This document shows, piece after piece, positions 6,370 through 64,000 of a DNA stretch of 64,000 nucleotides (its first letter is position 1; each line of letters opens with the position of its first letter). Location: the NCBI GenBank assembly GCA_964016885.1, contig OZ024742.1, forward strand, positions 46,934,001 through 46,998,000, in the 5' to 3' direction. The position numbers were made by a program, and so were the translations under genes. The DNA is from Eledone cirrhosa (Eukaryota). The notes beneath the pieces were generated by a model. That model saw nothing but the letters and a program-made list of their open reading frames with translations. It did no database searches and had not been told where the DNA came from.

Positions 6370-6376
<7 letters not shown>

Positions 6377-6480
6377 GTGAGGTTTCTTTTACAAAATGAA
6401 AAATAACCGAGGTGTCCTACACGAGTGAAAGTATAAAGAAAAAGAGATGAAATCGAAAATACAACTGGAGTCTTATTTTT

Positions 6481-6533
<53 letters not shown>

Positions 6534-6595
6534 TTGGTTCCTTTACCGGTTTCGCAGTTCTTCTGCTTTCCAAAAGGTGAGTTGAGATGGAGGGA
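6370..6595 (-). mobile_element. pLTR-like repeat family carrying a U3-A8 hammerhead (copy 1)
   Basis: The same sequence occurs at 24583-24945, 25940-26092 and 55348-55825. The HHR motif is at 6540-6577 (this copy reads UUGGAAA). The 3' end is at (TA)n. Confidence 0.8.
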
Positions 6596-18997: not shown

Positions 18998-21900
18998 TTC
19001 GTTTCTGAATTTGTTTACCAAGATTCATTATCTGAAAACGTGTGTTGAAACGGATATTGTTATACTTTGGGAGGGTCATGTTGCCAATAAGAAACACACG
19101 CACCAGGTTCTTTCACTCCGATTTATTATAAATTAAATTATAAATGAAAAAATTTATAAATTTCCGGTTGGTTGGTTGGTTCCACAACCGGACGGTTGTT
19201 CATATATTGTCAAAGTTCTTTCGTCACACATTCTGTGACCTCTTCAGTGACTGGGGTTTCTTTTCTTTGTTTTGTGCCTCTCCTTTGTTCTATCCTACGC
19301 CATCTTGTTTTTGTGTGTGTTGTGTGCTTAGATTGCGCATGTGTTACATCCGGGTGTCTGTGTGTGTTTTTATTTGTTTATTTATTTGTTTCTTTACATG
19401 TTACTAGGGCCCTTCTAAATTTGTAAGCTAATTCACCTCTAGGGGTTGTATTAATGAACATTACACTCTGGTATTTATTGCTATCATACCATGAGTTTCT
19501 TCTATTAACCTTATTCCTACTTCTTTCTATTCTATTCCAAAATCTGCTCCTATACTAAGGGCAGGTCCCATTTGTATCATTATTTACCATTTTTTCCCAT
19601 TTGGTTCTGGCTCCTCTATATACTCTGATTTTATCTCTCTGATTGTAACCAGAGAACTGCATTCGGTGAATCAAATGTTGTATGTGTCTCTATAGTTCTT
19701 TGGGGTTGCACATGCGGGACACGTTGTTTCTTATCACCCGTACTAAATCCGCAATCCATATGTTGATTTTGGTGTGATCCGAAACAGCTGAGTTTCGGTG
19801 GATCAGATATTTGGAAGTCATAGGTTTGGCATAATGGGAATGGAGGATTGTTTTTTTTGTTATTAATAGTTTCTAACCAGAGAACTGTGTCTAGTACAGG
19901 TAATCGATGGTTGGGGTGTTTGCTTGGGTAATCTATAGTAACTCTAATACTCTGGTGGATGGAGTTAGCTATTTGCTGGATGCTTTCCGTGGTGTTTTTC
20001 TCTAATTGCTGACTGTTTTCTAGTGGGGGTGTTTTTACTACGATGTTTATATCATCAACGTAGCGAGAGTACATTATCAGGGTTAAGAGGTTGTTCTCTT
20101 CTAATTGTTCTTTAAGTGTATTGTCCCAGCATACCATGAATAGATTAGCTATGTCACCTGCAATGCTAACACCAATGGCTGCTCCTTACTCTTGGGCATA
20201 TGTTTTTCCATTAAATTTGAACATACGTTCCTTAATGGTTAGTTTTATAGTGGCTCCCACCGCATGTGCAATCATTTTCTTTAGTTCATCATGGTTTTCG
20301 GGGGTCTGTATGGCTCTGGTCCACCCGTTCTATCTTTCTGTGTGGGTTCTCTTGGTCATTAAGTTAATGGTCGGTGGTCTGCCTCTTGCTGGCCTTGTGG
20401 GAAAGAGGTTGCTAAGGTCATACGCATCTAGATAATTATTACTATAAGTAAGTTTAAGTAGGGGTCCCAGCTCACTGGTATCAATCCTTACGATCAGGGA
20501 GAGGAAGTAGGAAAGTCTGTAGCTACTAGCAATGTTAGCTCCACAGACTGGCCGTGTTGCTGGTCATGTGACTGGATCACTGTTCGTCTTATAGTCTTTT
20601 CGAAGCCCATACAACGCTGGCATTGTTCCAGGCCTGGAACTTGTTGGCAGTCCGTTTATTGGGCTGCATTATGTTTGTCCACATCATCATATGAGCGTTG
20701 AGGGTTTTCTCCCTCTCCTCATGCTTTTGTGGTGTTACTTCTCTTGTGTTAGTGATGTGAGGTTGCATTGCCTGGATGTAGTTTGACAGACTGTCAACCG
20801 ACATTCTGCCAGACTTGTCTGTTGGAAAGCATGCAATCTCTCCATCACGTGAGCGCTGCATGAGCTTACGCAAGCCATTTGCAGAATTTTCTCCCAGTTG
20901 CTGGGCTTACATTCTATTTTTCTTCTGTTCTGTAATATTTCTAAGTTTAGATCTAGCTATATTAAATTGTGATTATGTTTGTTCATCGACCTGCGACGGC
21001 AATTGCGTGCGCTTGTTAAAAGCTAAAGTCGTGGCGAGGACTCGTCGTAGGTCGAAGGACTTATCGGAAGGGTTATAAAAAGTAAAATTCCAGACTGCTG
21101 CGTTATGTGTTCTATTGCTATTGTTATTGTTAGTTGTGTTGTTTCTATTTCTATTTCCACCAACAGCCTCATGGTTGTTTCTATGTCTCTCATTATTACT
21201 CCTGTATCTTTCCTCTGGCTCATTGTTATTATCTACTCTATTTTGTGTGTCTGTATGTTCGTCCTGGTTATTTTGTCTGTCAGTATCGATAGTCTCCCTT
21301 CATCTTTCAATCCCATTACTTTCCCTTACATCTGTGTTACTGTCATTATCTGTTTTCTCTTGTCTGTGTGTCTGTTAAGATTGTGGTGGTGAGAGGCATA
21401 GGATGTGTGTGTGTTCTTGTTGATGTGTGTTGTTGTTGATGTGTGTTGTTTTTATTGTTGTTGTCTCTGTGTATGTTGTTATTATTGTTGTGTGTGTTGT
21501 TGTTGTTGTTGTTGTTTGTGTCTGTGTGTCTGTTGTTGTCTCTGTGTATGTTATTATTGTTGTTGTGTGTGTTGTTGTTGTTATCATTGTTTGTGTCTGT
21601 GTGTCTGTTGTTGTTGGGATGTGTGTTGTGTGTTGTGTGTGCGTATGTTTTTACTTTTGTTTTTGTTATTGTTTTTGAGGCTCGAACGTAATTTTGTAAA
21701 TTATTTTTCTATTTCTGACAAGCATCTTATTATGTGTTGCATATTTAGGTGGTAGCTGTAATATGGATAATTCATCAGGGTCTACTGTAGTGTTGCCGTA
21801 TATATTTGTGTTGTTGAATTCGTCCGTTAATGGTATGTCGGCCATGGTTATACCATCAATCCTATCTGGATATTTATGTCTATTCTCTGAAGTTTCTTGG

Positions 21901-22140
21901 TTTAGTTTCATCTGTTTGAGCCACGTTAATTTCTTGTTAAAGTGTTTGTTGCATTCTTGGATGATGTACTTTTATTTTTCGTGTATAATGTTTATGTATT
22001 CTAATTCTTCTTTTTGTGTGGTGATCTTAGTTATTTCCTATATTAGGTTACGCTTATGTTTTTCTTGATGACTTAATTCTCTGTAAATCTTTTTATGTTT
22101 AGAATTAGTATTCGTTTCAGCCTATCTGCTTGTTTTTCAT
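18998..22140 (-). mobile_element. Penelope-like element, inverted internally deleted copy (family A)
   Basis: LPPKYA, CFPTDKSGR and YSRYVDDI motifs, with a pLTR at 18998-19405 containing an HHR. The GIY-YIG region is missing at the ~19405 junction and there is a second deletion at ~20487. Confidence 0.9.
19209..19251 (-). ncRNA. Minimal type I hammerhead in family A pLTR
   Basis: GUCA-CUGAAGA-G-GUCACA gaaug UGUGAC-GAAA-GAAC-UU-UGAC. Homologues lie at 61011-61053 (+) and, with the core deleted, at ~24372-24403 (+). Confidence 0.8.
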
Positions 22141-24557
22141 GTCACACTACATCCAGGCAATGCAACCCCACATCACTAACACAAGAGAAGTATGAACACA
22201 AGAGCATGAGGATAGGGAGAAAACCCTCAACGCTCATATGATGATGTAGACACACATAATTCAGCCCAATAAACGGACTGCCAACAAATTCCAGGCCTGG
22301 AACAATGACGTGCCAGCGTTGTATGGGCTTCGAAAGCACCATAAGACAAACAGTGACTCAGTCACAAGACCACCAACACGGCCAGTCTGTGGAGCTAACA
22401 TTGCTAGTAACTACAGACTTTCCTACTTCCTCTCCCTGACCGTACGTCCCATCATTGATATGTCCCCGGATATATGTGACAGCGCGGAAGACCTCAGCAG
22501 AATCAGAGAAAATAACCGATCTAGGGACCTAACATACTGTATAATAGGTAGTATGGATGTTGTGTCCCTATACCCATCCATTGACGTGGAATTTGCTGTG
22601 GAGAAATGCGTAGAAATGATCAGTGAGAGAAATGTTGAATTCCCTGGGATTGATACCGGTGTGCTGGGTCTCCTACTTAAACTTACTTATAGTAATGATT
22701 ATCTAGATACGTATGACCTTACCAACCTCTGCCCCACAAGGCCAGCAGGAGGGAGACCACCTACCATTACCTCAATGGCCACGAAAACACACACAAAAAG
22801 ATAGAACTGGTGGACCAGAGCCATACGGACCCCCCAAAACCATGATGAACTAAAAAAAATGATTGCACATGCGGTGGGGGCCAGTATAAAACTAACCCTT
22901 AAGGAATATATGTTGAAATTTTATGGAGAAATATATGCCCAAGAGTAAGGAGCAGCCATTGGTGTTAGCATTGCAGGTGACATAGATAACCTATTCATGG
23001 TATGGTGGGACTTAAAGAACAATTAGAAGACAGCAACCTCTTAACCCTGATAATGTACTCTCGCTACGTTGATGATATAAACATCGTAGTAAAAACACCC
23101 CCACTAGTGAACAGTCAGGAATTAGAGAAAAACACCACGGAAAGCATCCAGCAAATAGCTAACTCCATCCTCCAGAGCATTAGAGTTATTATAGACTACC
23201 CAAGCAAAAACCCCAACCATCGATTACCTGTACTAGACACAGAGCTCTGGTTAGAAACTATTAATAACAAAAAACCAATCCTCCATTCCCATTATGCCAA
23301 ACCCATGACTTCCAAACATCTGATCCACCGAAACTCAGCTGTTTCGGATCACACCAAAATCAACATACTGATTGCGGATTTAGTACGGGTGATAAGAAAC
23401 GTGTCCCGCATGTGCAACCCCGAATAACTAGAGAGACACATACAACACTTCATCCACCGTATGCAGTTCTCTGGTTAAAATCAGAAAGATAAAATCAGAG
23501 TGTATAGAGGAGCCAGAACCAAATGGGAAAAAATGGTAAATAATGATACAAATGGGACCTGCCCTTAGTATAGGAGCAAATTTTGGAATAGAATAGAAAG
23601 AAGTAGGAATAAGGTTAATAGAATAAACTCATGGTATGATAGCAATAAATACCAGAGTGTAATGTTCATTAATACAACCCCTAGAGGTGAATTAGCTTAC
23701 AAATTTAGAAGGGCCCTAGATAAACTTAAACTAAATATTAATACAGTAGAAAGACCAGGTACCTTCATAAAAACACTTATTAGTAATACATACCCTTCTC
23801 AAAGACCTCCCTGTATAGATAAGAAATGCATAACCTGTAAACTAAGCCCCCATATTAACTGTAAAACTAGAAACATAGTATATAGCATAAGATGTACTGA
23901 AGGACACGGTAAAGATAAGAATATAGTGTACATAGGTGAGACAGTATAGTCGAACCATTAGATGAACACTGGCGAGACCTTCAAGATAGTAAAGAATCAT
24001 CTGTACTACACCAACATGCTAAAATAGAACATATGGGCAAATTAGAGAACATAGAAATAAAAATAAAATCTACACACAGAAAAGACGCAATGTTTAGACA
24101 AATCACAGAGGCAATAAACATAAATGAACTCCAACCAAATTAAATAGAAAACATGAATGGAATAGCAACATCACAACTTACAATTAAGGACAAAATGAAA
24201 ACCCACAGACATAAAACAAACAACCAACCAGTAACATGTAAATAAACAAATAAAACACACACACAGACACCCGGATGTAACACATGCGCAAACTAAGCAC
24301 ACAACACACACAAAAACAAGATGGCGTAGGACAGAACAAAGGAGAGGCACCAAACAAAGAAAAGAAACCCCAGTCACAGAATGTGTGACGAAAGAACTTT
24401 GACAATATATGAACAACCGTACGGTTGTGGAACCAACAAGCCAACCGGAAATTTATAAATTTTTAAATTTATAATTTAATTTATAATAAATTGGAGTGAA
24501 ACAACTGGTGCGTGTGTTTCTTATTGGGAACATGACCCTCCCAAAGTATAACAATAT
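22141..24557 (+). mobile_element. Penelope-like element (family A): RT and GIY-YIG fragments plus pLTR
   Basis: PALYGLRKHHK, PPTRPVCGA, SMDVVSLYPSI, YSRYVDDI, CxxxxCxxC and NIVYSIRC...YIGET, with multiple stops. The pLTR at ~24230-24557 ends in (TA)n. Confidence 0.92.
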
Positions 24558-24582
24558 GTATATATATATATATATATATGTG

Positions 24583-24945
24583 TTAGAAAGTGAGCTTTAT
24601 TTTACAAAATGAAAAATAACCGAAGTGTCCTACACGAGTGAAAGTATAAAGAAAAAATATGAAATCTAAAATGCAACGGGAGTCTTATTTAAAAATATAT
24701 ATATATATATATTTTATATATATATATTTTATATATATATATTTTATATATATATATTTTATATATATATATTTTATATATATATATATTTTATATGAGA
24801 TGGAGGGTCTGTTACCACAGACCCTCCATCTCAACTCTACTTTTGAAAACCAGAAGAACTGCAAAACCGGTAAAGGAACAAAATAAATATATATATTTAA
24901 ACAAAAATAAGACTCCAGTTGCATTTTCGATTCCATCTTTTTTTC
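24583..24945. mobile_element. Foldback of the U3-A8 pLTR-like family
   Basis: gagatggagggtctg ttacca cagaccctccatctc forms the centre. There is an internal (ATATATATATATTTT)-type repeat expansion and a decayed HHR at 24840-24876. Confidence 0.8.
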
Positions 24946-25006
24946 TATATATATATGTATATATATATATATAAAAGAAAATTTCGCTCTACATGGCTGA
25001 ATACAA

Positions 25007-25447
<441 letters not shown>

Positions 25448-25530
25448 AAGTTTTATTTAAATTGTTGGGTTACAACGAGTAAATATTTATAACTGATATA
25501 AAAGCACTCAACAAGTATTTGGAGTATATT

Positions 25531-25926
25531 TACGATATTAAATAAATGGAAACTATATTTATAAAACCATATTTATTTCATTATATATATTTCAGGGATA
25601 TCATATTTCATATCATAATTCTTCTTTCTATCTATCTCTCTATATCTATCTCTCTCTATTTAGTTGCATGCATTTCTTCTTTTTCTTCGTTTTTCTTTCT
25701 TTTTTCTTTCTTTTTATAACTGTCCCTAACATTTTTCACTACCAAATCAACTTTTTAAATGGAAGATGAAGTTGAAAGGTATGTCAAATCTATCTATTTA
25801 TAAGACTGTTTATATTGTATTTTGTCTGAAGAAGGCATAACATATTTTTAATATGATATCCCTGAAATATATATAATGAAATAAATATGGTTTTATAAAT
25901 ATAGTTTCCATTTATTTAATATCGTA
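25531..25926. mobile_element. Foldback element with ~77-bp inverted arms and a hammerhead
   Basis: 25531-25607 is inverted at 25850-25926, which ends at (TA)n. Confidence 0.8.
25818..25883 (+). ncRNA. Type I hammerhead ribozyme
   Basis: UAUUUUGU-CUGAAGA-AGGCAUAACAUAUU uuu AAUAUGAUAUCCCU-GAAA-UAUAUA-UA-AUGAAAUA, with palindromic stem III. Confidence 0.78.
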
Positions 25927-25980
25927 TATATATATATATGTGAGATGTGAGAAACACCACAGACCCTCCATCTCAACTCA

Positions 25981-26018
25981 CCTTTTGAAAAGCAGAAGAA
26001 CTGCGAAACCGGTAAAGG
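25981..26018 (+). ncRNA. Minimal type I hammerhead with U3-A8 core (UUGAAAA)
   Basis: CCUU-UUGAAAA-GCAG aagaa CUGC-GAAA-CCGG-UA-AAGG. There are five copies in the window. Confidence 0.8.
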
Positions 26019-26087
26019 AACCAAATAAATATATATATTTTTAAAAAAAATAAGACTTCAGTTGCATTTTCGATTTCATCCCTTTTT

Positions 26088-26130
<43 letters not shown>

Positions 26131-27029: not shown

Positions 27030-28013
27030 ATAGGGTCGGAACCCGACGGCTGAACTCTTGGAACTAACTGATTAAACGACAAGAACTCAGCCGTCGTGTA
27101 CCCATTTTTTACAATATAACCAAAGGATTTCCCGGTGAAACAAACCACCGCTGAAAATGTTTTCCCTTCGATTTATATGAAATTTAAACCATAGGTAAAT
27201 GACAAGATATGATGCCTATTCACAAAATTTCACAAAATTTCAATAATATTAAGACACCCTAATAAGGGTTAAACCCCCAATAGTCAACATTTTGGCCAAT
27301 AAATGGGACAATATGTGTTGTAACAAGATTGCATGAGAACTTGATTGAAGCAACCATTATATTCGGGGCTTACAAAGGTCAAGCTTTTCTCATTCCGAGG
27401 ATTCCACTTATACCAAGTGATAGCGAGCTGCCTTTTACATTTAAGAGGCAGCAGATCCCAGCGAGGCCATGCTTTGCCATAAGCATCAATAAGAGTCAAG
27501 ATCAAACTTTCAAAACTATTGGTATAGATCTGACGAACCCATGTTTCAGTCATGGCATGTTTTATGTGTCTGTTTCAAGGACTGGAACTTCAAAAAATCT
27601 CTACCTTTTAGCCAATCAAAGAAAGACAAGATTTGTTGATTACGCTGAAGTATGGGACAAAGTATGAAATATATTTACATGTATTTATGATATTAAAAAA
27701 TAAATAATTAAACTTTGAATTTCTAATTTGAAAATAATGCTTTACACAAAAATGAAATGATCAAGTTTTGAATTGATATTTTGAAAAAAAATATTTACAA
27801 GAAGGAAAATAAGAATAAGATTTGATAATGTAATTTTGATTTGATATATTACAAAAAAAAAGGTTTTCCAATTGTTGATGCATAACAACTTACATTGAGT
27901 CATATTGAAATGCAGAGTTTTTCTCCATAAATTATATCACTAATTTAAAATCAATCATCATTTTCTTACAAAAAATATGTGTGAAACACAGCAAGGCGCC
28001 GGTGATTCGGCTA
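27030..28013 (+). mobile_element. Internally deleted Helitron
   Basis: It contains the RepHel helicase C-terminus, followed by an AT-rich tract and a GC-rich end (gcaaggcgccggtgattcggcta). The termini are approximate. Confidence 0.75.
27329..27667 (+). pseudogene. Helitron RepHel Pif1-family helicase C-terminal fragment
   Basis: LIPRIPLIPSDSELPFTFKRQQIP..CFAISINKSQDQT...CFSHGMFYVSVSR (SF1B helicase motifs V and VI). Confidence 0.93.
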
Positions 28014-31000
28014 TATAAATATATTGGAAATCGAGAGTGGAGTATGCCAGGCAAACGAGCCAGTGGGAAATGAAGGTGAAGAGGTTGAGAGAACGGAGGA
28101 AACATCCGAAGCAGACAATGATCTAAATGCTGAAATAAATAATACCTGGAACAAAGATACGGTCATTGAGGAGATGAATGCTGACGGGCTAGGACAAGAT
28201 TTGGTTGATATTCTAAACTTAGTGGTAGATGAATTGAACAATGATAGTGGGAAACCTATGAACCTAAGATTTGTAGACAAGAAAAAGTTAAAAGGAACAA
28301 CAGCTAAGGTAAACAAAGTGATCCCATACATTGAGGCGAGGAGACTTCACCAGTGCAACAATATCCTCAAAGCAACAGCAAATGAGGTGAGGAAATTACT
28401 TGGCATAACAGCGAGAGGAAACAACAAACAAGAAAGATCAGAACCTTGGTGGAAGAAACGACTGAATGGTCAAATCAGGGAAATGAGAAATGACATTGGA
28501 AAGCTTGAGTCCCTACTGAATGGGACACTAAAAAACATAGACACTAAAAATAGACTGGAAATAAAGTACAAAACTAGGAGGAAAAAGCTAAATATTATCA
28601 TAGAGGAACTGAAGCAACGCATTTTAGCAAAGAGTGTAAAAATTAGGCGATACGAGAGCAGAGTCAGTCAGTATAGACAGAACCGCATGTTTGACAACAA
28701 CTAGAAGATGCTGTTTGGACAGCTTGAAGGGAAAGAAAGAGGCAACGACTTGATCCCTGAGGCGGAACAAACTAAGACATTCTGGAGAGGAATATGGGAG
28801 CAGGATGTTAATCATAATGACCAGGCAGTGTGGATTGAGACAGTACAAAAGGAGATTAGTGAACAGGTACACCAACAAACTGATTTGAGTATCACAGTTG
28901 AAACTCTTAAGAGGCAGGCAAAAAATCTAACCAACTGGAAATCACCAGGTCCAGATGGTGTGCAGGGGTATTGGATTAAAAATATAACATCCCTCCACCC
29001 GAAATTGACAATCATGTTCAATGACTGCTTGATGTCAGGTGAGGTACCAGAGTGGTTGACAAAAGGTACCACAGTTCTGGTAATGAAAGAACGAATCAAA
29101 GGTTATTATGTTACCAACTATAGACCTATCACATGTCTGTCCGTAATGTGGAAACCGTTGACAAGCATTGTGTCTGAGGAAATCTACCATCACCTCCACA
29201 CAAACAAGAAGTCACGTGGTATAAAGGACCAGTTACTTATTGATAAGATGGTAATGAAGAATTGCAAGAGGAGACACACTGGTCTTGCCATGGGATGGAT
29301 AGACTACAAAAAGGCATTTGATATGGTGCCTCATTCTTGGATCACCAAAAGCCTAGAGATCTTCAAGGTAGCAGATAACATCAGACAGTTGTTGGGCAAA
29401 AGTATAAAGTCCTGGAAAACAGAGTTAACATCAGCTGGAGATTCCTTGGGAGGCGTGAGGATCAAGAGAGGTATCTTCCAGGGAGTAGTCTGTCCTCCCT
29501 GTTGTTTGTCCTTGCCCTGATGCCCCTGACCATTATACTGCGAAAGGTGAGAGCAGGATACAAGTTGTGAAAGGGAGAGATTAACATCAATCACCTCCTC
29601 TTCATGGACGATCTTAAGCTCTTCGTGAAGAGTAAGACGGAGTTGGATGTGCTTGTTGACACTGTCCGTATTTTCAGCAATGATATATGTATGCAATTTG
29701 GTATTAGTAAGTGTGGAGTCCTTGTGATGAAGAGGGGCAAATTGAGCAGAAGCAACGGAATCCAGGTACCAACAGGTGAGATGACAAAGGAAATTGACAC
29801 TGAAGAAGGATACAAGTATTTGGGTGTTCTGGAGGCTGATGACATCAAGAACAAAAAAAAATGAAGGAATTGATAAGATCTGAATACATTCGGAGAGTAA
29901 GGAGCGTATTAAAGTCATATCTGAACAGTAGGAATACGATAAGTGCAGTAAATTCCCGAGCTGTGTCTATTATTAGGTACAGTGCGGGAATTCTGAGATG
30001 GAATGTTGCTGAACAAAAAGAAATGGATAGTAAGACTAGGAAGCTATTGACTATCTACAACATGTTCCACAAGAAGAGTGATGTCTACTTAAGGAGATCT
30101 AAAGGTGGAAGAGGTCTTATCAGAATAGAGGACTGTGTTCAGATGGAGAAAAACAACCTGAACAAATACGTGACTGGTAGTAAGGAGCCAATGCTCAGAA
30201 TTGTACTGAAGGAGAGGACAATAGACCAGGGGATGTCCAAGGAGGAAATAATAACAAGGAGAAAGAGCAGCCTTCATGAAAAATCCCTTCATAGTAGCTT
30301 TTTTGAGAAAACTGAATTCAGAGATCCACACACATGGAACTGATTGAAAAGAGGAGACCTTAAAAAGGCTACAGAAGGAATGCTAATGGCTGCGCAAGAG
30401 CAGGCCCTCAAAACGAAGTGGCTGAAACACCATATTTACAAGGAGGAGGCTAGCCCACTGTGCAGGATCTGTGGAGAGAGAGAGGAGACTGTGACTCACA
30501 TTGTATCCGAGTGAAAACACCTAGCCCAGACTCACTATAAAGGCTGGAGACATCATGTGATGGGCAGGGTGATCCACTGGCACCTATGCAAAGTAAACAA
30601 TTTACCACATTCTGAGAAGTGGTATTAGCATAAGCCAGAGTCGGTGATAGAAAATGATCAGGTGAAGGTGCTGTGTGATTTTACGATACAGACGGACAAG
30701 AAACTGGAACACAATAGACCTGACCTGGTTGTTTGGGACCAGGAAAAAAGATCGTGCCTGATTGTGCATGTGGCCTGTCCATTCGACACGAGAGTGCAAG
30801 AGAAGGAGAGGGAGAAAATTAACCGATACCAGGACTTAAAGTGGGAGGTAAAAAGGATTTGGAACTGCCATGAAGTCAAAGTGATCCCGATTGTCATAGG
30901 CGCACTAGGTACTATCTCAAAAAGTTTCCAGGGATGGTTAAAGAAAATTGGCCCCGCACCCCTTTTTGGAACGCTTCAAAAGGCATGCTTGCTGGGCACA

Positions 31001-31110
31001 GCAAGAACCCTCCGATACGTCATGAATATCTGAGGATGCAGGTAGTGGCTTGATATTTATTTCAACAAACTTTCCAGTTAACTAACGTAAATGACTGAGA
31101 CTCAAAGAAC

Positions 31111-31167
<57 letters not shown>
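28014..31167 (+). mobile_element. R4/Dong-type non-LTR retrotransposon (RT plus restriction-like endonuclease), copy 1, disrupted
   Basis: WKSPGPDG, NYRPITCL, WIDYKKAFDMVPH, RGIFQG, FMDDLKLF, a CCHC remnant and RPDLVV..ACPFD..EKINRY, followed by an (AAT)n tail at 31110-31167. Confidence 0.93.
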
Positions 31168-31168
<1 letters not shown>

Positions 31169-34100
31169 TTTTCTTTATTAACCACAAGGGTTTACATAAA
31201 GTTGACATTAAGGACAGTAGGACAATACAGGACGGTACAAATGGGCATTTCTGCGTGTAAAAAACAGAGGATGTAATAAAATAACAAAGAAAAATTCCCC
31301 AATAGGGGGGAGACTTCGGAGGGACATTTGTGGAGAAAGCCCAGTAAAAGGCCGCAGTGACCCTGACCACCAAGGCAAGTGCCCTCTCCCAGTTTTCTAC
31401 CTTTAATTTACAGATATATACTCAGAGTAGGCCCATTCACTCGGGCCATTTTTGCTTCTCTCACCCATCTTTCAACAAAATGCTGGGAAGAGAGCACTTC
31501 CCTCTCTACTCTGATTTTCCTTTTCAAATGAAATTTGAAAAAGTCAATCAGGGCATCACCGAAGAGGTAAGTGCTCGTCTTCACCCCTTTCAAACGTGTC
31601 CACCATACTATCTCTTTCGCCATGGCCACCAGACAGATAAAAACTGCCTGCCCTTCCCGGCTAAAGGAGGAGGGCGGGGCAATCCTCACGATGGACTCAG
31701 ATGATAGCCGGATCCATCCTACACGCGACAGCAGGTGTTCGACATAAACCCACAAGTCAGCAATTTTCGGACACTGGACGAGTGCGTGCAGGACGGTTTC
31801 GTCGCCCTGCGCGCATCTCGGACATGCTCGGCTGACAGCACCTCCATGCGTGTAGAGTTTATCCCGAACTGGCAAGGCTCCTCGGTAGCACTGCCAGGCC
31901 AGAGATTTCTGGAAATTGTCCATAGGCCCTGGCCCGAAAGTTCTTCCGAAGAGATTGGCTAGTTGATTTTCGTCAACGCCTAGAGTTTCCCCAAGTACGT
32001 CGTCGCTCTTCCCCTCCACTAATCCTCTATAGAACGCCGAGGTGGAGTTTCCACCGATCACATTGCCCGATTGGTCGAGGGCTGTGAGCGCCTGAAGACA
32101 TTCCAGTCTCCAGGCGCTCCCACTCGGTCTTCGCTTGACCCAGGACTGCAGCTCCGTCAAGGAAACGAGCTGGGTAAATACGTGTCTAGCAAACGGCGAC
32201 CGCACCTGATCACCGTCGAGGAAGAGGTGGAGATGTCGTAACCTGAGCGCGTGCCTGCGCATCATCAGCCACGGCATGCGCAGCCCTCCACGTAGCGGGT
32301 GTTGACAACAGATGGACCGCCTGACCATCGGAGCGCGTCCCTCCACAAAGAGCGAAAGAGTAAACGCTCCAGCACAGTCAGGTGAGGCTTAGGACAAGGT
32401 ACGACGGTCGGGCGGTAGCAGATGACAGACGCGATGTACGCGTTAGCCACCTCCGCTCGACCTTTCAGGGATAGCTTACTCTCCGCCCATTTCTGGGTGA
32501 GAGAAGCCACCCTGCTCGTCACCTCGTCCCACTTTTTGTCCGTCTGGAGGTCCGGACCGAACCAGACCCCTAGCAATTTTACCGGTCCGTCCGTCCAGCG
32601 CCCGACGACGCTGTTGGACGGCATGGACCTGCCACTCCAGGTGCCGAGCTGCATGCCCACTGACTTTTCCTGGTTGATCATTGCTCCTGTCACCACTTCG
32701 TATTTTCTTAGTGTATTGCCGATCGCCTCGATGTGTTTGGCGTTCGACACCACTACGGTGACATCGTCGGCATATGCTGACACGGATCTTCCGCATCCTA
32801 GTTCGCGCGGGACGCCCCTCAACGTCTCCAGTTTGTGCAGTAATGGCTCGAGAGTCAATACGTACAAGAGGGACGAGAGGGAACATCCTTGGCGGACCGA
32901 GCGCATGATGTTGAACGGTTCCGAAAGGTGACCGTTCACTCTCACCACAGAGCAGATGTCGCTGTGCATGGCAGCGATCCAGCCTCTGAAGACGGGCCCA
33001 AAGCCAACCGCCCTCAGGGCTGCCGCTAGGTAACGATGGTCGACCCTATCGAAAGGTTTCGACTAATCTAAATTGATCAAGGACCCACCCGTGCCAGGTT
33101 CCCTAGCTACCCTCTCTACGATGTATCGCATGAGGTGGAGGTTGTCGTGGATGGATCTCTCGGGAATGGCGCATGTCTGAGCCTCTCCCACCAGACCACC
33201 AACGACAAGCGCCAACCTCTTTGCTAGCACCTTGGCCAAAATCTTGAACTCTGTGTTTAGCAGAGTTATGGCTCTAAAATTATCTATGTTATCCCCCTTG
33301 TTGGGATCCTTTCTCAGCAGTGCCACCGCTCCTCGGCTCATAGAACTGGGAATTCTCCAGTTCTGTTACCAGTTGCAGTAGACGTCCGCCAAGAGGCCTC
33401 CAAACAAGTCTGGCATCTGTACGTAAAGTTCATAGGGCAGACCATCCAAACCAGGCGAGTTACCCCTTGTGCAGCCAGTCATTGCCTCCCTTACTTCAGC
33501 GGCTGTTATCGGCTTTTCGCAACACTCCGCCTCAGTGGCCGAGAGCCGCGGCAGTCCGTCGAGGTAGACACTAAAGTCCATCCCTCGACCTGGCCTACCG
33601 CTGCCTCCGAACAGCTGAGCGAAGTGTCGCTGAAAAGCTTCACACATTTGTCCGGGATCGAGTAGCATGAGCCCGTCGTGGTCCACCAAAGACCGGATCG
33701 TGGCTTTGTTGCCACGACGCGCCTCCGCCACTAGGGCCCATTGAACGGCTTTCGTCCCCTCGTGTCTGAGAGCACGCACCCTAGCTCTGACAACGCAGCC
33801 TTCGTGCTTTGCATTGAAGAATTGGTCAAGGACCAATTTCGCCGCAAGCACGTCGGTCGCAATGCCTTTGCTAAGCGCCTCGTCTAATTTTCTAACTAGT
33901 TCTCCCTCTGCTCTATTTTTCTCTATTGCTAAAGCCTTACTAAACCTAATGGATTCTATTCTAATCGCTCTTTTCAGAGCAAACCACCACTTGTTGTTGA
34001 CGATGGCCCCCGTCAACGCCCGCTTAACTAGTTCGCTAATCCGGTCTCTGTAGGCCTTGCGCGCTGGTAAGGACGCGTTTAGCTTCCAGTAGTCGGGTCC

Positions 34101-34773
34101 TCGTCTATGAAGCCTATCTAATTCAAGCACACAGATCACGAATTTGTGGTCCGTGTAGCTGACTATCTTGAATTGTGGACAGCCTATGCTAGACCTATCT
34201 ATTTCCCTACAAAATACTCTATCTAGATATGATCTGGATGAGCCTATGCGATTTGTCCAAGTCCACATTGGCACATTCGGGAAATCCAATCGGTACCTGT
34301 CAGACAGTTCAAAACGCCTGAGCAGGTTGGTGAGGCTCTTGCACCCTCCACCCCTATCCGCTAATCCCACACAGTCCCAGCGTGCATCTAAGATCCCGTT
34401 CCAGTCGCCCACTAACACTAAAGAGCGGGACGTTCCAAGAAAGGTCTTCAGACGCCGGAAGAAATCAGGCCGTCCTGCTCCTGTCGGGGCATAGACGGCC
34501 ACTAGCCTGAAAGCTTGCCCGACTGCGCTGGTCACGTCCAGCACCAACATCTTAGCCTCTGGGTCCAGGAAGATTGCCCGTATGGCGAGATCCAAACCTC
34601 TCCGAAAAACACAGCAACTCCTCCCCCCGATCCAGGACGGCTGGGAGATGCGTACACATCGTAGCCGCCGAAGATCGGTGCGAAGGCCCGTGCTTCGGAG
34701 ATTCTGGTCTCGCTGATGGCCACTACATCTATGTTTAGTGACCTGAGGTCGTTGAGCAGGTGACCCTGCTTCC
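31168..34773 (-). mobile_element. Tx1/L1-clade LINE ORF2 (APE endonuclease, RT, Cys-rich domain), frameshifted, ORF1 absent
   Basis: AISET, VYAP, GDWN, YLDRV, TDHK, SPGLDG, NFRAITLLN, RQGCSLS, AYADD and CPRC..ETVLHALVQC. An AATAAA lies just before the (TAA)n array at the 3' end. Confidence 0.93.
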
Positions 34774-37592
34774 ATGACGGCGAGGAGCCTTCACCAGTGC
34801 AACAATATCCTCAAAGCAACAGCAAATACGGCGAGGAAACTACTTTGTATAAAAGCGAGAGGAAACAACAGACAAGAAAGAGAAGAGCCTTGGTGGAAGA
34901 AACGACTGAGTGGTCAAATCAGGGAAATGAGAAATGACATTGGAAAGCTTGAGTCACTACTGAATGGGACACTAAAAAAATTAGGCACTAAAAGTAGACT
35001 GGAAATAAAGTACAAAACTAGGAGGAAAAAGCTAAATATTATCATAGAGGAACTGAAGCAACGCATTGTAGCAAAGAGTGCAAAAATCAGGCGATACGAG
35101 AACAGAGTCATTCAGTATAAACAGAACCGCATGTTCGACAACAACCAGAAGATGCTGTTTGGACAGCTTGAGGGGAAAGAAAGAGGCAACGACTTGATCC
35201 CTTTGGCGGAACAAAGTAAAACATTCTGGAGAGGAATATGGGAGCAGGATGTTAGACATAATGACCAGGCAGGGTGGATTGAGACAGTACAGAGGCAGAT
35301 CGGTGAGCAGGCACACCAACAAACTGATTTGAGTATCACAGTTGAAACTCTTAAGGAGCAGGCCAAAAAACTAACCAACTGGAAATCACCAGGCCCATAT
35401 GGTGTGCAGGGGTATTGGATTAAAAATATAACATCCCTCCACCCGAAACTGACAACCATGTTCAATGACTGCTTGATGTCAGGTGAGGTACCAGAGTGGT
35501 TGACAAAAGGTACCACAGTTCTGATAATGAAAGAGCGAATCAAGGGTAATGATGTTACCAACTATAGACCTATCACACGTCTGTCCGTAATGTGGAAACT
35601 GTTGACGAGCATTGTGTCTGAGGAAATCCACCATCACCTCCACACAAACAACTTGTTACCGGACGAACAGAAAGGATGCCGAAAGAAGTCACGTGGTACA
35701 AAGGACCAGTTACTTATTGATAAGATGGTAATGGGGAATTGCAGGAGGAGACACACTGATTTTGCCATGTGATGGATAGACTACAGAAAGGCATTTGACA
35801 TGGTGCATGATTCTTGGATCACCAAAAGCCTGGAGATCTTCAAGGTGGCAGATCACATCAGACAGTTGTTGGGCAAGAGTATGAGGTCTTGGGAAACAGA
35901 GTTGACATCAACTGGAGAATCCTTGGGAAGCGTGAAGATCAAGAGAGGTATCTTTCAGGGAGATAGCCTGTCCCCTCTGTTGTTTGTCCTTGCCCTGATG
36001 CCCCTGACCAGTGTACTGCGAAACGTGAGAGCAGGATACGGGTTGGGAAAGGGAGGGATTGCCATCAATCACCTCCTCTTCATGGACGATCTTAAGCTCT
36101 TCGGGAAGAGTGAGAAGGAGTTGGATGTGCTTGTTGACACTGTCCGTATTTTCAGCAGTGATATATGTATGCAGTTTGGTATTAGTAAGTGTGGAGTCAT
36201 TGTGATGAGGAGGGGTAGGTTGAGCAGAAGTAACGGAATCCAGATACCAACAGGTGAGATGATAAAGGAAATTGACTCTGAGGAAGGATACAAGTATTTG
36301 GGCGTTCTGGAGGCTGATTGCATAAAGAACAAAAAGATGAAGGAATTGTTAAGAACTGAATACATTCGGAGAGTAAGGAGCGTATTGAAGTCACATCTGA
36401 ACACCAGAAATGCCATAAGCGCAGTAAATTTCCGAGCTGTGTCTATTATTAGGTACAGTGCGGGAATTCTGAGATGGAATGTTGCTGACCAAAAAGAAAT
36501 GGATAGGAAGACTAGGAAGCTATTGACTATCTACAACATGTTCCAGTAGAGGAGTGATGTCGATAGACTCTACCTAAGGAGATCTGAGGGTGGAAGAGGT
36601 CTTATCAGCATAGAGGACTGTGTTCAGATGGAGAAAAACAACCTACACAAATACGTGACTGATAGTAAGGAGCCAATGCTCAGAACTGTACTGAAGGAGG
36701 GGACAATAGGCCAGGGGATGTCCAAGGAGGAAATAACATCAAGGAGAACGAGCAGCCTTCAGGAAAAAATCCCTTCATAGTACATTCTTTGAGAAAACTG
36801 AATTTAGAGATCCACAGACATCGAACTGGTTGAGAAGAGGAGACCTTAAAAAGGCTACAGAAGGAATGTTAATGGCTGCGCAGGAGCAGGCCCTCAAAAC
36901 GAAGTGGTTGAAACACCATATTTACAAGGAGGAGGCTAGCCCACTGTGCAGGATCTGTGGAGAGAGAGAGGAGACTGTGACTCACATTGTATCCGAGTGT
37001 AAACACCTAGCCCAGACCCACTATAAGGGCTGGAGACATGATGTGATGGGCAGGGTGATCCACTGGCACCTGTGCAAAGTAAACAATTTACCACATTCTG
37101 AGAAATGGTATGAGCATAAGCCAGAGGCGGTGATGGAGAACGATCAGGTGAAGGTGCTGTGGGATTTTAGGATACAGACGGACAAGAAACTGGAACACAA
37201 TAGACCTGACCTGGTGGTTGTGGACAAAGAAAAAAGATCGTGTCTGGTTGTGGATGTGGCCTGCCCATTCGACACGAGAGTGCAAGAGAAGGAGAGGGAG
37301 AAAATTAACCGATACCAGGACTTAAAGTGGGAGGTAAAAAGGATTTGGAACTGCCATGAAGTCAAAGTGATCCTGATTGTCATAGGCGCACTGGGGACTA
37401 TCTCCAAAAGTTTCCAGGGATGGTTAAAGAAAATCGGCCCCTTCACGCTTTTTGGAACGCTTCAAAAGGCATGCTTGCTGGGAACAGCAAGAACCCTCCG
37501 ATACGTCCTGAATATCTGAAGCTGCAGGTAGTGGCTTGATATTCATTCCAACGGACTTTCCAGTTAACTAACATCAATGACTGAGATTCAAG

Positions 37593-37623
<31 letters not shown>
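34774..37623 (+). mobile_element. R4/Dong-type non-LTR retrotransposon, copy 2, disrupted
   Basis: Same family as 28014-31167: QGDSLSPLLF, FMDD, CRICGEREETVTHIVSEC..RHD and RPDLVVVD..DVACPFD..EK, with an (AAT)n tail. Confidence 0.94.
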
Positions 37624-42076: not shown

Positions 42077-42514
42077 TGTAGTGACTGAGATGGTCGCTTA
42101 GCAAATAGCAGTTGCCTCCCCTTAACAACTCTTCAGAGAGCGGAGGCAAGATACATCCGGTCACAGACGCGGACATGAACAGACGTGAAAGGATTCGCTC
42201 CTCAAAAAATATTGACCATGCTGGCTTCGTGAGGGATTATGTGTAAATGCCCTCCTTCGCATCAAGGACGCCACGATATCTCGACTAATATGCACTCGAT
42301 TATTCTTTCGTTGTTCCTGCACCGGAGAATATAATTACACTACTTCTATTAACCAACAAGGTATGTTTGAATTGATATTGTACATAATTTATTAAATGTC
42401 GCATTTAATAAAGGTTCGTTGATTTTTGACTGTTCACACCCATTCTGGAGTCATTTATTTCTACAAAGAGAAACGATGTATTATCCATTCATCCACAATC
42501 ATTCGTTTCCTTTA
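42077..42514 (+). repeat. 5' LTR
   Basis: Starts TGTAGTGAC, is near-identical to 47266-47694 and contains AATAAA at ~42407. Confidence 0.95.
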
Positions 42515-42535: not shown

Positions 42536-42886
42536 CAATACGCGGATACTAAAAAAAAAAAAATGTTTTCTTTGGTTTGAATCTAAACCTTTTCCAAAAA
42601 AAAAAACACTTAAATGCAAGCCTTCTAAAAAGGAAGAAGGAAAACAAGATGTCTAAACTCTGTTCGCTGTTTACACTGTGAACATTTTTCTTTCCTGATT
42701 TTCACCGCCATTTCCTCATGAAATTTTTTTAAATGGCCGACATTGTCCCGCCATTCTGCGTGTCTTCTTCCTTCTGCGGTTTTCCCGCGCACAGTGTATC
42801 TTCTTCAATCCCAGCAATCTGATTGGCTGCATCGTGCCACGTGACGGCGTCTTCACCAAAAGCATTTTTTTTCTCAACTGGCCATC

Positions 42887-43678
42887 ATGAATTGGCATAA
42901 TTTGCCGATATTTGCGGGCGATATTAAGCTCTGGTTTTCGCAGCTTGAATGCTATTTCGATTTAACCAAAACCAAAGAACAGCATAAACTGAAGGTACTA
43001 GTTAGTGGCTTGCCTGTGTCGTTGGCATATTCCGTGAAGGATGTGGTAACCAATTTAGTCGCAGACGTTACTTATGGCTCATTAAAACTAGAAATTCTTC
43101 GTAGGAATACTAGGTCTGTGGAGAGCCGTTTTCGGGAATTATTGGAGGATACACAGATGGGTGACAGAACGCCAGCCTTCTATTTGCGACATCTGCGTGA
43201 GCTGAGCGACTCCCAAGGAATTGATACATCCTTCATTTAACAGCTATTTTTCTCCTGTTTACCGCCAAGTGCGCAAATGGTCTTGGTCAATAATTTGGAG
43301 AGGGAGTCGTTAGATCAACTTGCCGCATCCGCGGATAGAATACTAGAGGTGGACTCTAACAGCAGTCGGCATAATCCTTGTGTGGCTTCTTCTTCTGTTC
43401 CCCCACGCAATTCTTCTGTGGCCGACAGCAAACTGTTGGAGATGATCGAAGCGCTCACCAAAAAAGTGGAGGATTTGACCGTACAACATAGAGAGCCTTC
43501 TCAACGTTTAAGGTACCGTTCGCCTCCGTCTGCTATTCCTCGAAACCGCTACGAGTACCGTTCGTCACAGTTCCTCGCCAACACTACACTTCAGGCAACA
43601 GTAATTCTTCGATTTGTTGGTATCATGTTAACTTTGGCAGTCGGGCGCAGCGCTGTCGGGCGCCTTGTAACTATATGA
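42887..43678 (+). pseudogene. gag: Gypsy gag (in-frame stop at ~43238 and a later frameshift)
   Basis: LPIF..IKLWFSQLECYF, MGDRTP..YLRHLR and LDQLAASADRILE. A CWYH..FG..A..C..PC knuckle lies in the shifted frame at ~43615-43670. Confidence 0.85.
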
Positions 43679-46600
43679 GTTCGGGAAAACGCCAATCAGA
43701 GCCACTAGGGGCGGCTAATGAACTCTGGGAAACTCGACCAAACCGTCATCTTTTTGTGTACGATCTGCAGTCAAAAAAATGTTTTCTTGTCGACACTGAC
43801 GCGTCACTAAGTATTTGGCCAGTCAGTTATCTAAAAAAACAACCCTTCTGTATCAAATATCAATTTACGAGCAGTCAACAACACGGCAATTCGAACGTAC
43901 GGGCAAATTTCGCTCCCTCTTCGGTTTAAAAATTTGCGTCGTAAATTGAAGTGGAAGTTTACTATCGCCGACTTGCCATACGCCATTTTGGGAGCGGATT
44001 TCCTCCACCATTTTTCCTTGTTTCTTGACATCCGCAGACAACGACTTTTTGATGCTAATACAGGCCTATCGTTCGAGGGTACAAAGCCGGAGATCGCCAG
44101 AGTAAGCCCTGCTTTTTTCTTGGCTGAAGTGGCAACCAGTATCACAGTTTGTTAAAATCATTCCCACAGCTGACGCAAGGAAGATTACGAATTGCTAGCC
44201 CGGATCATGTGATTGAACACTTTATATCCACTACAGGTCCACCTGTTTTCTCACGTCCTCGAAGATTGTCTGCAGAGAAGTTGAAAGCTGCACGTCTTGA
44301 ATTCGACCACATGCTGGAATTAGGAATAATTCGGCGTTCCACAAGTCCTTGGGCATCGCCTCTACATATGGTACTTAAATCTTCTGGTGATTGGAGACCG
44401 ACGGGTGACTACCGACGCTTAAACGCGATTACTGTGCCTGACCGTTATCCAATACCGCATTTGTAGGATTTTGCATTGTCATTGCAGGGTTGCAGAATCT
44501 TTTCTAAGCTTGATTTGATCCGCGCTTATAATCAAATTCCGGTTAAAAAGGAGGATATTCCAAAGACTGCTATTGCCACTCTTTTCGGATCATTCGAGTT
44601 CCTCATTATGCCTTTCGGACTTAGAAATGCTGCAAGTACCTTCCAACGATTCATGGATGATGTCACTCGTGGTCTCGATTTTGTTTATACGTATATCGAT
44701 GATGTACTGATTGCTAGTTCTTCTCCTGAACAACATTCCAAGCATCTGGATCTTGTATTTCGTCGTTTACAGAGATATAATGTTCGTATTAATGCTTCCA
44801 AGTGTGTTTTCGGCTCGACCTCACTAACATTTTTAGGCCATCTGATTTACGCCGATGGTATTCGACCTCTTCCTGAGAAGGTTAAGGCAGTATTGGATTT
44901 GCCTCCGCCAGGTTCACTGCGACAATTGCGTCAATTCTTAGGCCTTGTAAATTTTTATAGGCGATTCGTGCCTAATTGTTTCAACCTGCTGTTCTCGTTG
45001 ACAGACATTTTTAAAAATTGCCGGCGTAAGAATATGGACATTTCCTTAAATAAAACGCAGCTTGAGGATTTTAAAAAAGTGAAAAAGGCGTTAGCGAGCG
45101 CGTCTTTGCTCGCCCACCCAGTACCCAACGCCGAGCTATCGCTCTGCGTTGATGCGTCGGATACCGCCGTGGGCGCAGTCTTACAGCAGAAGTGTGAGGG
45201 GTTACAGCAACCACTCGAGTTCTTTTCGAGAAAGTTAAAGCCTGCCGAAACTCGCTATAGCACCTTTGGAAGGGAGCTATTAGCAATTTATTTATCAGTG
45301 AAACATTTTGTTCATGTACTAGAAGGTAGAACGTTCACTATTTTCACTGATCATAAACCTTTGACGTTTGCTCTTCGAACTAAAGCAGACAAATACTCGC
45401 CCAGAGAAACGAGACATCTGGACTTCATCTCAGAATTTACGAACGACATTCAACATATTCCGGGTTCTTTGAATACAGCGGCCGATGCGCTGTCTCGCCT
45501 GCCGATCGCATCGATTTCGTCTTCCGAGGAGATAGATTTACATCGAATGGCAGCTGCTCAACCCACTCTCGAATCGTTAGATGTTACATCGCCAGAGTTT
45601 GTACATTGCAAACTGAAATACATTCCGATCTCAACTGCTGACGGACAAATACTGTGTGACGTTTCGTTGGACTCACCACGACCTCTAGTCCCAGTGGAAC
45701 ATCGACGAACTGTGTTTCTCGCTTTACATGGCATTTCTCACCCAGGAGTATCAGCCTCAGTAAAACTCATAACAGCCAGATTTTTCTGGCCTGATATGAG
45801 ACGTGACATTGCTGCTTGGTGCCGTTCCTGTGTCGCTTGCCAAAAGTCAAAAGTTCATAAGCACGTTAAAACTCCTCTCGGAACTTTCACCTGTCCTGAT
45901 GCCAGATTTCATCACATTCATGTGGACATCGTCGGCCCGTGGCCGATTAGTCGTGGTTATTCGTATATTTTGACGATCGTTGACCGTTTTTCGCGTTGGC
46001 CTGAAGCCATCCCTATGACAGATATCACTGCCGAAACGACAGCGCGTACTCTCGTATCTGCATGGATCGCTCGTTTTGGAGTACCCACCACAATAACAAC
46101 AGACCGCGGTCGTCAATTTGAATCGAACCTCTTCCGTGAAATAACACAAATTATTGGCGCTACTCGCATAAGAACCACGGCATATCATCCAGCATCAAAC
46201 GGAATGGTGGAAAGATTTCACAGACAGCTTAAAGCCTCTTTAAGGGCTTCAATGGACTCTTCACGTTGGAGTGAGTACCTACCCATTGTGTTGTTAGGTA
46301 TTCGGTCGAAAATAAAGGTGGACCTTGGGTTCTCCCCGGCCGAATTGATTTATGGTACTCCTCTTGCGTTACCGGGACAAATGCTTGCTCCTGTTGATCT
46401 TGCTTCGCAGGATCCCGCTTCCTACGTGTCCCGGCTTCATTCTTACTTCCAGGATTTATCACCGATGGACACTAGGAAGCAAACTGTAAAAACTGCCGTC
46501 CCAAGGGAAATTGCCTTGTGGACACATGTGTTCGTTAGAGACGACGCCGTGAGACCCCCTCTTCAACGGCCGTACTCTGGACCCTATCGTGTGCTTGCTC

Positions 46601-46836
46601 GCACAGACAAACATTTCACACTGGACATTCGGGGTTCCAGGGAAACGGTTTCCGTTGATCGTCTCAAACGAGCAAACCTGGACAATGACACAATGACACT
46701 TGAAACTCAAATGCCACCTTCTTTTTCTTTGCCACATACGCCTATTTCTTCCCCCCCCCCCCACCATCAACATACAGAACTACGACCCGTTCTGGGCGAT
46801 GGGGGCATTGGCCCCGTAAGCTATGCAGTAATATAA
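43675..46836 (+). pseudogene. pol: Gypsy pol (protease, RT, RNase H, integrase), disrupted in its 5' part; 44476-46836 is open
   Basis: [87 protein letters not shown] and GPY. Confidence 0.95.
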
Positions 46837-47265: not shown

Positions 47266-47694
47266 TGTAGTGACTGAGATGGTCGCTTAGCAACTAGCAG
47301 TTGCCTCCCCTTAACAACTCTTCAGAGAGCGGAGGCAAGATACATCCGGTCACAGACGCGGACATGAACAGACGTGAAAGGATTCGCTCCTCAAAAAATA
47401 TTGACCATGCTGGCTTCGTGAGGGATTATGTGTAAATGCCCTCCTTCGCATCAAGGACGCCACGATATCTCGACTAATATGCACTCGATTATTCTTTCGT
47501 TGTTCCTGCACCGGAGAATATAATTACACTACTTCTATTAACCAACAAGGTATGTTTGAATTGATATTGTACATAATTTATTAAATGTCGCATTTAATAA
47601 AGGTTCGTTGATTTTTGACTGTTCACACCCATTCTGGAGTCATTTATTTCTACAAAGAGAAACGATGTATTGTCCATTCATCCACAATCATTCG
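47266..47694 (+). repeat. 3' LTR (about 10 nt shorter at its 3' end)
   Basis: Matches the 5' LTR up to ...caatcattcg; two mismatches were seen by eye. Confidence 0.93.
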
Positions 47695-47762
47695 ATTTTG
47701 GATTTTACTGCACTTGAATATTTTACAACTTGGATTGAGTATTTGTTTGAATTCCTTTGCTA

Positions 47763-55252: not shown

Positions 55253-55347
55253 GTCTATATATCTATATATATGTCTATATATCTATATATATATATATAT
55301 ATATATATCTATATATCTATATATCTATATATATATATATATATATA

Positions 55348-55825
55348 AAGAAAAAGGGATGAAATCGAAAATGCAACTGAAGTCTTATTTTTTTTTTTAA
55401 ATATATATATTTATTTGGTTCCTTTACCGGTTTCGCAATTCTTCTGCTTTTCAAAAGGTGAGTTGAGATGGAGGGTCTTTGGTTTTTCTCACATCTGGTT
55501 GGTCTCTAAATTTATTATAATTATTGACAAACCAATCAAATTACTTCTCGAAAAACCTGGTTTTCGAGCCACTTTTTCCATATAAAACAAGTAACATTTA
55601 GAGACCAACCAGATGTGAGAAAAACCACAGACCCTCCATCTCAACTCACCTTTTGAAAAGCAGAAGAAATGCGAAACCGGTAAAGGAACCAGATAAATAT
55701 ATATATTTAAAAAAAAAATAAGACTTCAGTTGCATTTTCGATTTCATCCCTTTTTCTTTATACTTCCACTCGTGTAGGACACCTCGGTTATTTTTCATTT
55801 TGTAAAAAAAAACCTCACTTTCTAA
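55348..55825. mobile_element. Foldback of the U3-A8 pLTR-like family with two HHR copies
   Basis: 55348-55511 is inverted at ~55597-55760. HHRs lie at 55421-55458 (minus) and 55649-55686 (+), with (TA)n on both sides. Confidence 0.88.
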
Positions 55826-55833
55826 TATATCTA

Positions 55834-63907: not shown

Positions 63908-63976
63908 GTTTTATCTGATGAAAACACAAATATTATTGCTTGATGATGTTTGTTTTTGAAATGCGCATAATAAAAT
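63908..63976 (+). ncRNA. Type I hammerhead ribozyme (matching inverted copy at 62131-62199, minus)
   Basis: GUUUUAU-CUGAUGA-AAACACAAAUAUUAUU gcuu GAUGAUGUUUGUUUUU-GAAA-UGCGCA-UA-AUAAAAU, with a canonical core and palindromic stem III. Confidence 0.88.
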
Positions 63977-64000
63977 ATATGGAACTCCTTTAACCATCTT

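Follow-up and report, generated by a model that had tools for sequence, protein, structure and literature searches.

The closest described systems are the minimal hammerheads of PLEs. In Schistosoma mansoni, about 1,300 PLE minimal hammerhead motifs, most of them single, have been reported to carry U3-A8, and one PLE-linked row of the supplement has the heptamer UUGAAAA (PMC4209133). In the parts of that survey cited here, PLE minimal hammerheads were weakly active as dimers and inactive as monomers. Perreault et al. 2011 (PMC3088659) state that natural hammerhead cores with U3-A8 have activity in vitro. For position 17, C3-G17 pairing is the presumed reason why G17 impairs minimal hammerheads, and tertiary contacts overcome it (PMC3884650). 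A lizard PLE hammerhead cut only with the element protein, its mutants did not impair insertion in vitro, and the PLE tail was traced to two reverse-transcription start sites (PMC11167929). Naiad PLEs, which have an N-terminal GIY-YIG linked to the RT, use (TA)n targets and, according to the sections cited, spread without a canonical hammerhead; PLE insertions may consist of an inverted 5'-truncated copy with a tail of 30-40 bases at one end (PMC8557442).

In the 64,000-nucleotide stretch of DNA analysed here (the window), a 38-base motif on the plus strand (25981..26018) is built like a minimal type I hammerhead, with three helices and 11 out of 11 core bases. Stem I has 4 bp (CCUU/AAGG, 25981-25984/26015-26018). 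It is followed by the core segment UUGAAAA (25985-25991), in which U3 is 25985 and A8 is 25990, by a 4-bp stem II with a 5-base loop (GCAG/CUGC, 25992-25995/26001-26004, closed by G10.1-C11.1), and by the core segment GAA (26005-26007). The palindromic hexamer ACCGGU (26008..26013) is predicted to pair between two copies as stem III, and A17 (26014) ends a GUA triplet, with the predicted cut 3' of A17. Stems I and II and the palindromic stem III of this intact copy were found as the preliminary description of the window had drawn them. The motif carries all core elements of the PLE minimal class (the 3-8 pair, GAA, A15.1-U16.1, H17, and the three-way junction). Judged by these sequence features it is a member of the PLE minimal hammerheads, in which U3-A8 has already been published, and we regard its identity as a PLE-type minimal hammerhead as very probable. 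Neither the ribozyme nor the element represents a new class.

Allowing up to 3 mismatches, a 30-base pattern matched five places in the window and had no match in 100 shuffles. With a strict minimal-hammerhead descriptor there were two window sites and none in each of 20 shuffles, and with a loose one seven, versus 0-2 in shuffles. No hammerhead family was among the 128 matches up to E 5 in an Rfam scan of the window, and the folding energy of the 38-mer is ordinary (163 of 1000 shuffles were equally low). Since Rfam is silent and the fold energy alone is ordinary, the support for the motif comes from its core, its junction, and its context.

All five matches read U3 and A8, as had been claimed, and all five have the 6-base stem III palindrome. 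Four of the positions given earlier stand, but the second copy begins at 24839 and not at 24840, and the copies at 6540 and 55421 are on the minus strand. Moreover, the five motifs represent only four insertions, because 55421 and 55649 form one inverted pair. The 11 core bases are intact in three of the five copies. The core changes described for the other two are indeed there, namely A6G in 6540-6577 (-) and G10.1C and G12A in 24839-24876 (+), but the stem I change that accompanies the latter is a subfamily trait and not decay. The end of stem II is additionally changed in two copies, with a mismatch in 55649-55686 (+) and a G-U in 55421-55458 (-).

The hammerheads are embedded in a repeat of about 150-230 bases, whose five hammerhead-bearing copies are 90-98% alike, and (TA)n runs surround the copies. 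The copy with the intact motif (25943..26094, +) is whole but has no tail; it lies between (TA)n runs and stops at the first 3' end. Its 5' end equals a preferred 5' end of the family, which is 55611 in the longest copy (55596..55824, +). This longest copy contains the hammerhead 55649-55686, the first 3' end at 55762, and the optional tail at 55763-55824. Its inverted partner without tail (55344..55511, -) holds the hammerhead 55421-55458, and the segment between them (55512..55595, +) is an upstream part of the family that is present in fewer copies, not host spacer, and has no coding match. This segment was also tried as the end of a PLE protein, which was rejected as tblastn gave chance matches only. 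In the other inverted pair (24579-24951), a copy without tail (24814..24951, +), carrying the hammerhead 24839-24876, belongs to the subfamily without the outer stem I pair, while its partner (24579..24813, -) has the tail and a TA-rich minisatellite in place of the hammerhead. The remaining copy (6371..6594, -), with the hammerhead 6540-6577, is 5'-truncated and has the tail.

Three of the six window copies stop at the first 3' end and three carry the 62-base tail, which is one-sided in both inverted pairs (55344-55824 and 24579-24951), as published for PLEs (PMC8557442, PMC11167929). Two of the four insertions, at 6371 and 25943, are single arms with differing 5' ends. Among the window copies there are no head-to-tail tandem arrays, a trait of non-LTR retrozymes, in which every tandem unit has its own hammerhead. 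Miniature inverted-repeat DNA transposons have fixed terminal inverted repeats on every copy, whereas here the ends vary and the tail is one-sided. With 5' truncation, inverted pairs, an optional tail, two 3' ends, and (TA)n flanks, the copies look like PLE insertions. The (TA)n flanks agree with the target preference of Naiad PLEs. The 62-base tail exceeds the 30-40 bases published for PLE tails (PMC8557442).

The window is animal-like DNA rich in retroelement remnants, including several PLE-like ORFs. As stated in the preliminary description, no coding partner linked to the repeat family was found within the 64-kb window. When 50 ORFs from PLE regions were compared with the family, tblastn gave chance matches only (best E 0.021). 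None of the window's other PLE remnants qualifies as the parent, as they have no DNA similarity to the family and have C3-G8 motifs of their own. Two related remnants (19404-24230 and 51371-54494, 67-69% alike) contain RT and endonuclease-like pieces, with RWE and DKS motifs that by eye resemble those of the Hydra clade, and their C3-G8 motifs are at 19251 (-), ~61010 (+), and ~54773 (+). Another remnant (58673-60360, -) matches GIY-YIG weakly (E 0.0034), and a C3-G8 motif resembling a minimal hammerhead lies downstream of it at 57138 (-). An inverted pair (62107-62504 and 63596-64000, 98% alike) carries C3-G8 candidates with palindromic stem III at 62196 (-) and 63911 (+). A further C3-G8 candidate (25822-25878, +), in which a TA palindrome is combined with a long but imperfect stem II, lies 160 bases upstream of the 25981 motif, and 25525-25607 is a partial inverted copy of it. 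In addition, two related copies of an RT-endonuclease retroelement (28006-37623 and 42845-46836, 91% alike) surround a third, minus-strand element, and a gypsy-like pol is flanked by 432-base repeats (42077-42508 and 47266-47697); these labels were assigned by eye.

PLEs can hold introns inside the pLTR. At 55680-55777 (+), by eye and unscored, a splice-donor-like GT overlaps the cleavage triplet, and a pyrimidine tract in the tail ends in AG at 55776-55777. Such an intron, if real, would take out the cut site.

Beyond the window, 4 of 18 listed sequencing runs were aligned to 55512-55826, and the small-share runs X6 and X8-X15 were left out. Only run pieces at least 80% alike entered, and contigs lose rare variants. 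Run X1 consists of contigs of the best-matching organism, which need not be the window's species. In X1, 6692 contig pieces aligned, and their summed depth over 55622-55797 was 0.86-1.8 million versus 5-17 for the single pieces listed, a measure that is not a copy number. By this depth the family is very abundant. The depth drops stepwise toward the 5' side, down to 63,000, with one step at 55611. Five of the seven joints listed are strand switches near 55610-55615, and all seven are strand switches or skips. None of the listed runs containing the repeat holds RNA data. Runs X4 and X7, labelled as two other organisms, each have one low-depth contig near-identical to the window sequence at 55512-55717 (2 differences in 206 bases and 3 in 197). 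Cross-contamination is the simplest reading of these contigs; transfer between species is possible.

In X1, 23 places vary at 2% or more. None of the 22 that could be placed is a core base, and the remaining one is a C>T. No A>G occurs among the variable places, all five T>C places lie elsewhere than in the core, and A17 is invariant. All 11 core bases are kept at >98% in both subfamilies. Since C3 and G8 each stay below 2% by depth in X1, U3-A8 is the family-wide state. The claim that the variant is the state of the family and not decay is thus upheld, and on stronger support than the five window copies, which are insufficient for fixation: the flanks changed in 19 of 430 cells, and at this rate the probability that two chosen sites are unchanged in all five is 0.64, or ~0.76 with 11 in 405 cells when 5 columns beyond the first 3' end are left out (hand count). 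In the RAD run X16, six A>G and five T>C places come without position, and C3 or G8 may be among them. The most frequent polymorphism is an uncompensated change of the outer stem I pair from C-G to A-G, which accounts for 52% of the depth in X1 and 74% of the reads in X16. Stem I has 3 bp in about half of the family, a subfamily that includes the 24839 copy.

Conservation of the motif does not exceed that of its flanks. Among the window copies, changed cells were 2/55 in the core, 4/100 in the stems, and 19/430 in the flanks, and the X1 variable places (0/11 in the core versus 17/216 in the element) do not differ significantly. The preliminary description had named covariation of the stems across copies as a test of the motif. 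Among the window copies and the placed X1 and X16 variants of the family, no stem had changed on both sides in a compensatory way, and this expectation was not borne out.

We searched for related motifs with a pattern in which stem I, stem III, and GUA were fixed while either pyrimidine was allowed at position 3 and either purine at position 8, so that mixed pairs could be found. The pattern was found at 12 metagenome loci, which all belong to a single assembly (JAAUYA01) from another animal, and had no matches in viral contigs. The sole match in 596 Gb of prokaryote genomes (L013) is in an apparently bacterial coding sequence, has no stem II, and was rejected as a chance match. All 12 JAAUYA01 loci are C3-G8; they fall into about four families, with a differing and mostly weak or absent stem II. 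In the alignment, 12 rows have C-G as the 3-8 pair and four have U-A, and no row is mixed. As the rows are related, this counts as one change between two groups and not as sixteen events. The covariation score over the alignment, which contained four of the five window copies (6540 was left out), was not reached in any of 500 shuffles. We do not take this score as proof, because the search pattern itself fixed stems I and III, the 3-8 pair counts as one event, and the stem II columns are poorly aligned. Common descent with the JAAUYA01 loci outside the searched pattern was not established, since only one of 11 tested (L005, 4/500 shuffles) beat the shuffles; L002 was too short. A GIY-YIG ORF (Pfam E 4.7e-05) precedes one of the loci, L012, by 1.7 kb, with a zinc-finger ORF between. 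The contigs of L012 and L001 end and begin in the same hammerhead repeat, and L001 continues into a 579-residue ORF without a Pfam match.

The window contains another U3-A8 motif (49538-49630, -), a full-size type I hammerhead with C17, in which stem III is full, stem II has a long insert, and the cleavage site is GUC. It had been described as unrelated to the family, and the comparison agrees (local score 25 versus a shuffle mean of 23.8, with 169 of 500 shuffles as high). It lies ~1.1 kb downstream of an ORF (50736-51416, -) that is PLE-endonuclease-like by eye, without Pfam or BLAST support. Two U3-A8 families in 64 kb suggest that the variant is common in this genome. Because the two motifs are unrelated, C3-G8 has probably switched to U3-A8 repeatedly.

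In the isolated 38-mer, helices I and II have pair probabilities of 0.7-0.8, while stem I has a probability of 0.03 in a 152-base context. The modelled double hammerhead has -18.9 kcal/mol versus -12.8 for two monomers, and the palindrome 26008..26013 has pair probabilities of 0.92-1.0 in this dimer. The predicted stability is thus in favor of the dimer through the palindromic stem III that had been proposed. The inverted-pair copies are on opposite strands and thus cannot form a dimer within one transcript. The only same-direction copies are 24839 and 25981, which are 1142 bases apart, and the core of 24839 is broken. A pair between U3 and A17 is also predicted, at a probability of 0.56 for the monomer and 0.46 for the dimer, and would extend stem I over the cut site. 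This form is predicted to be stabler than the open one, both in the monomer (-6.4 versus -4.7 kcal/mol) and in the dimer (-20.3 versus -18.9 kcal/mol). By analogy, the U3-A17 pair may mimic the inhibitory C3-G17 trap. U3 with A17 in a hammerhead had no match in the literature searched, a search made without the main survey (Lunse et al.) and supplement file 1 of PMC4209133. It is conceivable, but in our view unlikely, that this is a self-throttled ribozyme in a very abundant PLE family, in which U3-A8 in a GUA-site hammerhead makes a U3-A17 pair covering the cut site and cutting is held off until an element protein or a dimer partner remodels it. If this is true and the parent is of the Naiad type, its hammerhead would have been overlooked by searches with the canonical CUGANGA core.

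We slightly favor the explanation that the repeat contains a PLE-type minimal hammerhead in a likely terminal repeat (pLTR plus tail) and that this hammerhead would cleave measurably, but as predicted weakly, after GUA. An autonomous PLE outside the window would have provided the reverse transcriptase that made the copies. This parent would carry the motif in its terminal repeat, and two motifs of a tandem transcript would pair through the palindrome to form stem III. The paired motifs might then cut the parent RNA weakly after GUA, as a dimer or perhaps with an element protein. The window copies would be reverse-transcribed, truncated, passive stubs that decay neutrally. Another explanation keeps this origin but makes the motif an inert passenger, with U3-A17 covering the cut site, no cutting, and an element that spreads without cleavage. 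This is possible, and we hold it to be less probable. The predicted U3-A17 pairing is analogous to the C3-G17 trap (PMC3884650), about half of the family has lost one stem I pair, and the comparison of copies has no signal of selection. Furthermore, PLE insertion in the lizard system was unimpaired by hammerhead mutants in vitro (PMC11167929), and Naiad PLEs are described as spreading without canonical hammerheads (PMC8557442). However, the core is kept at >98% at 11 of 11 bases in both subfamilies of X1, and the two-base compensatory state at 3 and 8 argues for past selection on the catalytic fold. An A-U trap is also weaker than a G-C trap, which counts against a motif that does not cut at all. 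Moreover, stabilisation of the core by tertiary contacts lets G17 variants cut well (PMC3884650).

The preliminary description had proposed an independent origin or an old lineage of U3-A8 hammerheads, distinct from the known PLE ribozymes. This proposal did not hold up well, and we regard it as quite unlikely. It would account for the lack of a sequence relation to the motif at 49538, for the weak downstream similarity to the 12 C3-G8 loci, where only L005 of 11 beat the shuffles, and for the absence of the extra base that the published consensus has after A9 (PMC4209133). However, copies that are 90-98% alike point to a young expansion, the stems have no compensatory changes, about half of the family is without the outer stem I pair, and at the JAAUYA01 loci identical stems I and III go with C3-G8. 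U3-A8 has been published in ~1,300 Schistosoma PLE motifs, including the row with the same heptamer, and the form with no bulge, a 4-bp helix II, a 6-base palindrome, and A17 has been published for shrimp PLEs (PMC4209133). The two unrelated U3-A8 motifs in the window also point to repeated switching rather than to one old lineage. A chance look-alike in a repeat that is not a PLE, e.g., a miniature inverted-repeat DNA transposon at TA, is very unlikely. The long inverted repeat at 55344-55762 with TA-run flanks would fit such an element, the motif has no Rfam match and an unexceptional fold as a 38-mer, and the search pattern did occur once by chance in 596 Gb of prokaryote genomes (L013, without stem II). 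On the other hand, the arms occur singly (6371 and 25943), their 5' ends differ, the tail is asymmetric, and the depth declines toward the 5' end. In addition, the strict descriptor had no match in 20 shuffles, and the same junction is found in several repeat families of another animal.

The PLE-type hammerhead family described here would be one more high-copy example of PLE hammerheads that switch between C3-G8 and U3-A8, and it indicates that searches with a canonical core miss whole hammerhead families. Moreover, the natural combination of U3 and A17 bears on the restriction at position 17 in minimal hammerheads and on the need of PLE ribozymes to cut.

Compared with the hammerheads of Perreault et al. 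(PMC3088659), the 25981 motif has the same core covariation, but their passage covers hammerheads generally and not PLE stubs with a minimal stem III. Like the animal non-LTR retrozymes (bioRxiv 10.64898/2026.07.22.740005), the family resembles non-coding type I hammerhead repeats from PLE pLTRs, but the retrozymes are described as head-to-tail tandem units and the window copies are single or inverted. The Cercyon PLE hammerheads of Schistosoma mansoni (Cervera and de la Pena 2014, PMC4209133) are also type I with U3-A8 and include one UUGAAAA row. They share with the family the mostly single dispersed copies, the opposite-strand pairs 100-700 bp apart, and the palindromic 15.2-16.2 region. 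Unlike them, the 25981 motif has no extra base between A9 and G10.1, a helix II of 4 bp and not 6-8, a 6-base palindrome, and A17, where two Schistosoma U3-A8 rows of that paper have G and U. The Cercyon hammerheads also differ in that the 25981 family is known from the repeat alone, without a linked ORF. The short-helix-III hammerheads of shrimp (Marsupenaeus), Drosophila, and mosquito PLEs have a similarly small palindromic helix III, and the Marsupenaeus row shares with the 25981 motif the absence of a bulge, the 4-bp helix II, the 6-base palindrome, and A17, although the rows from all three carry C3-G8 (PMC4209133). Finally, the motif is like the small PLE-associated variants of Lunse, Weinberg and Breaker (as described in PMC6765202) in its diminished palindromic stem III, its probable PLE association, and the proposed cleavage as a dimer.
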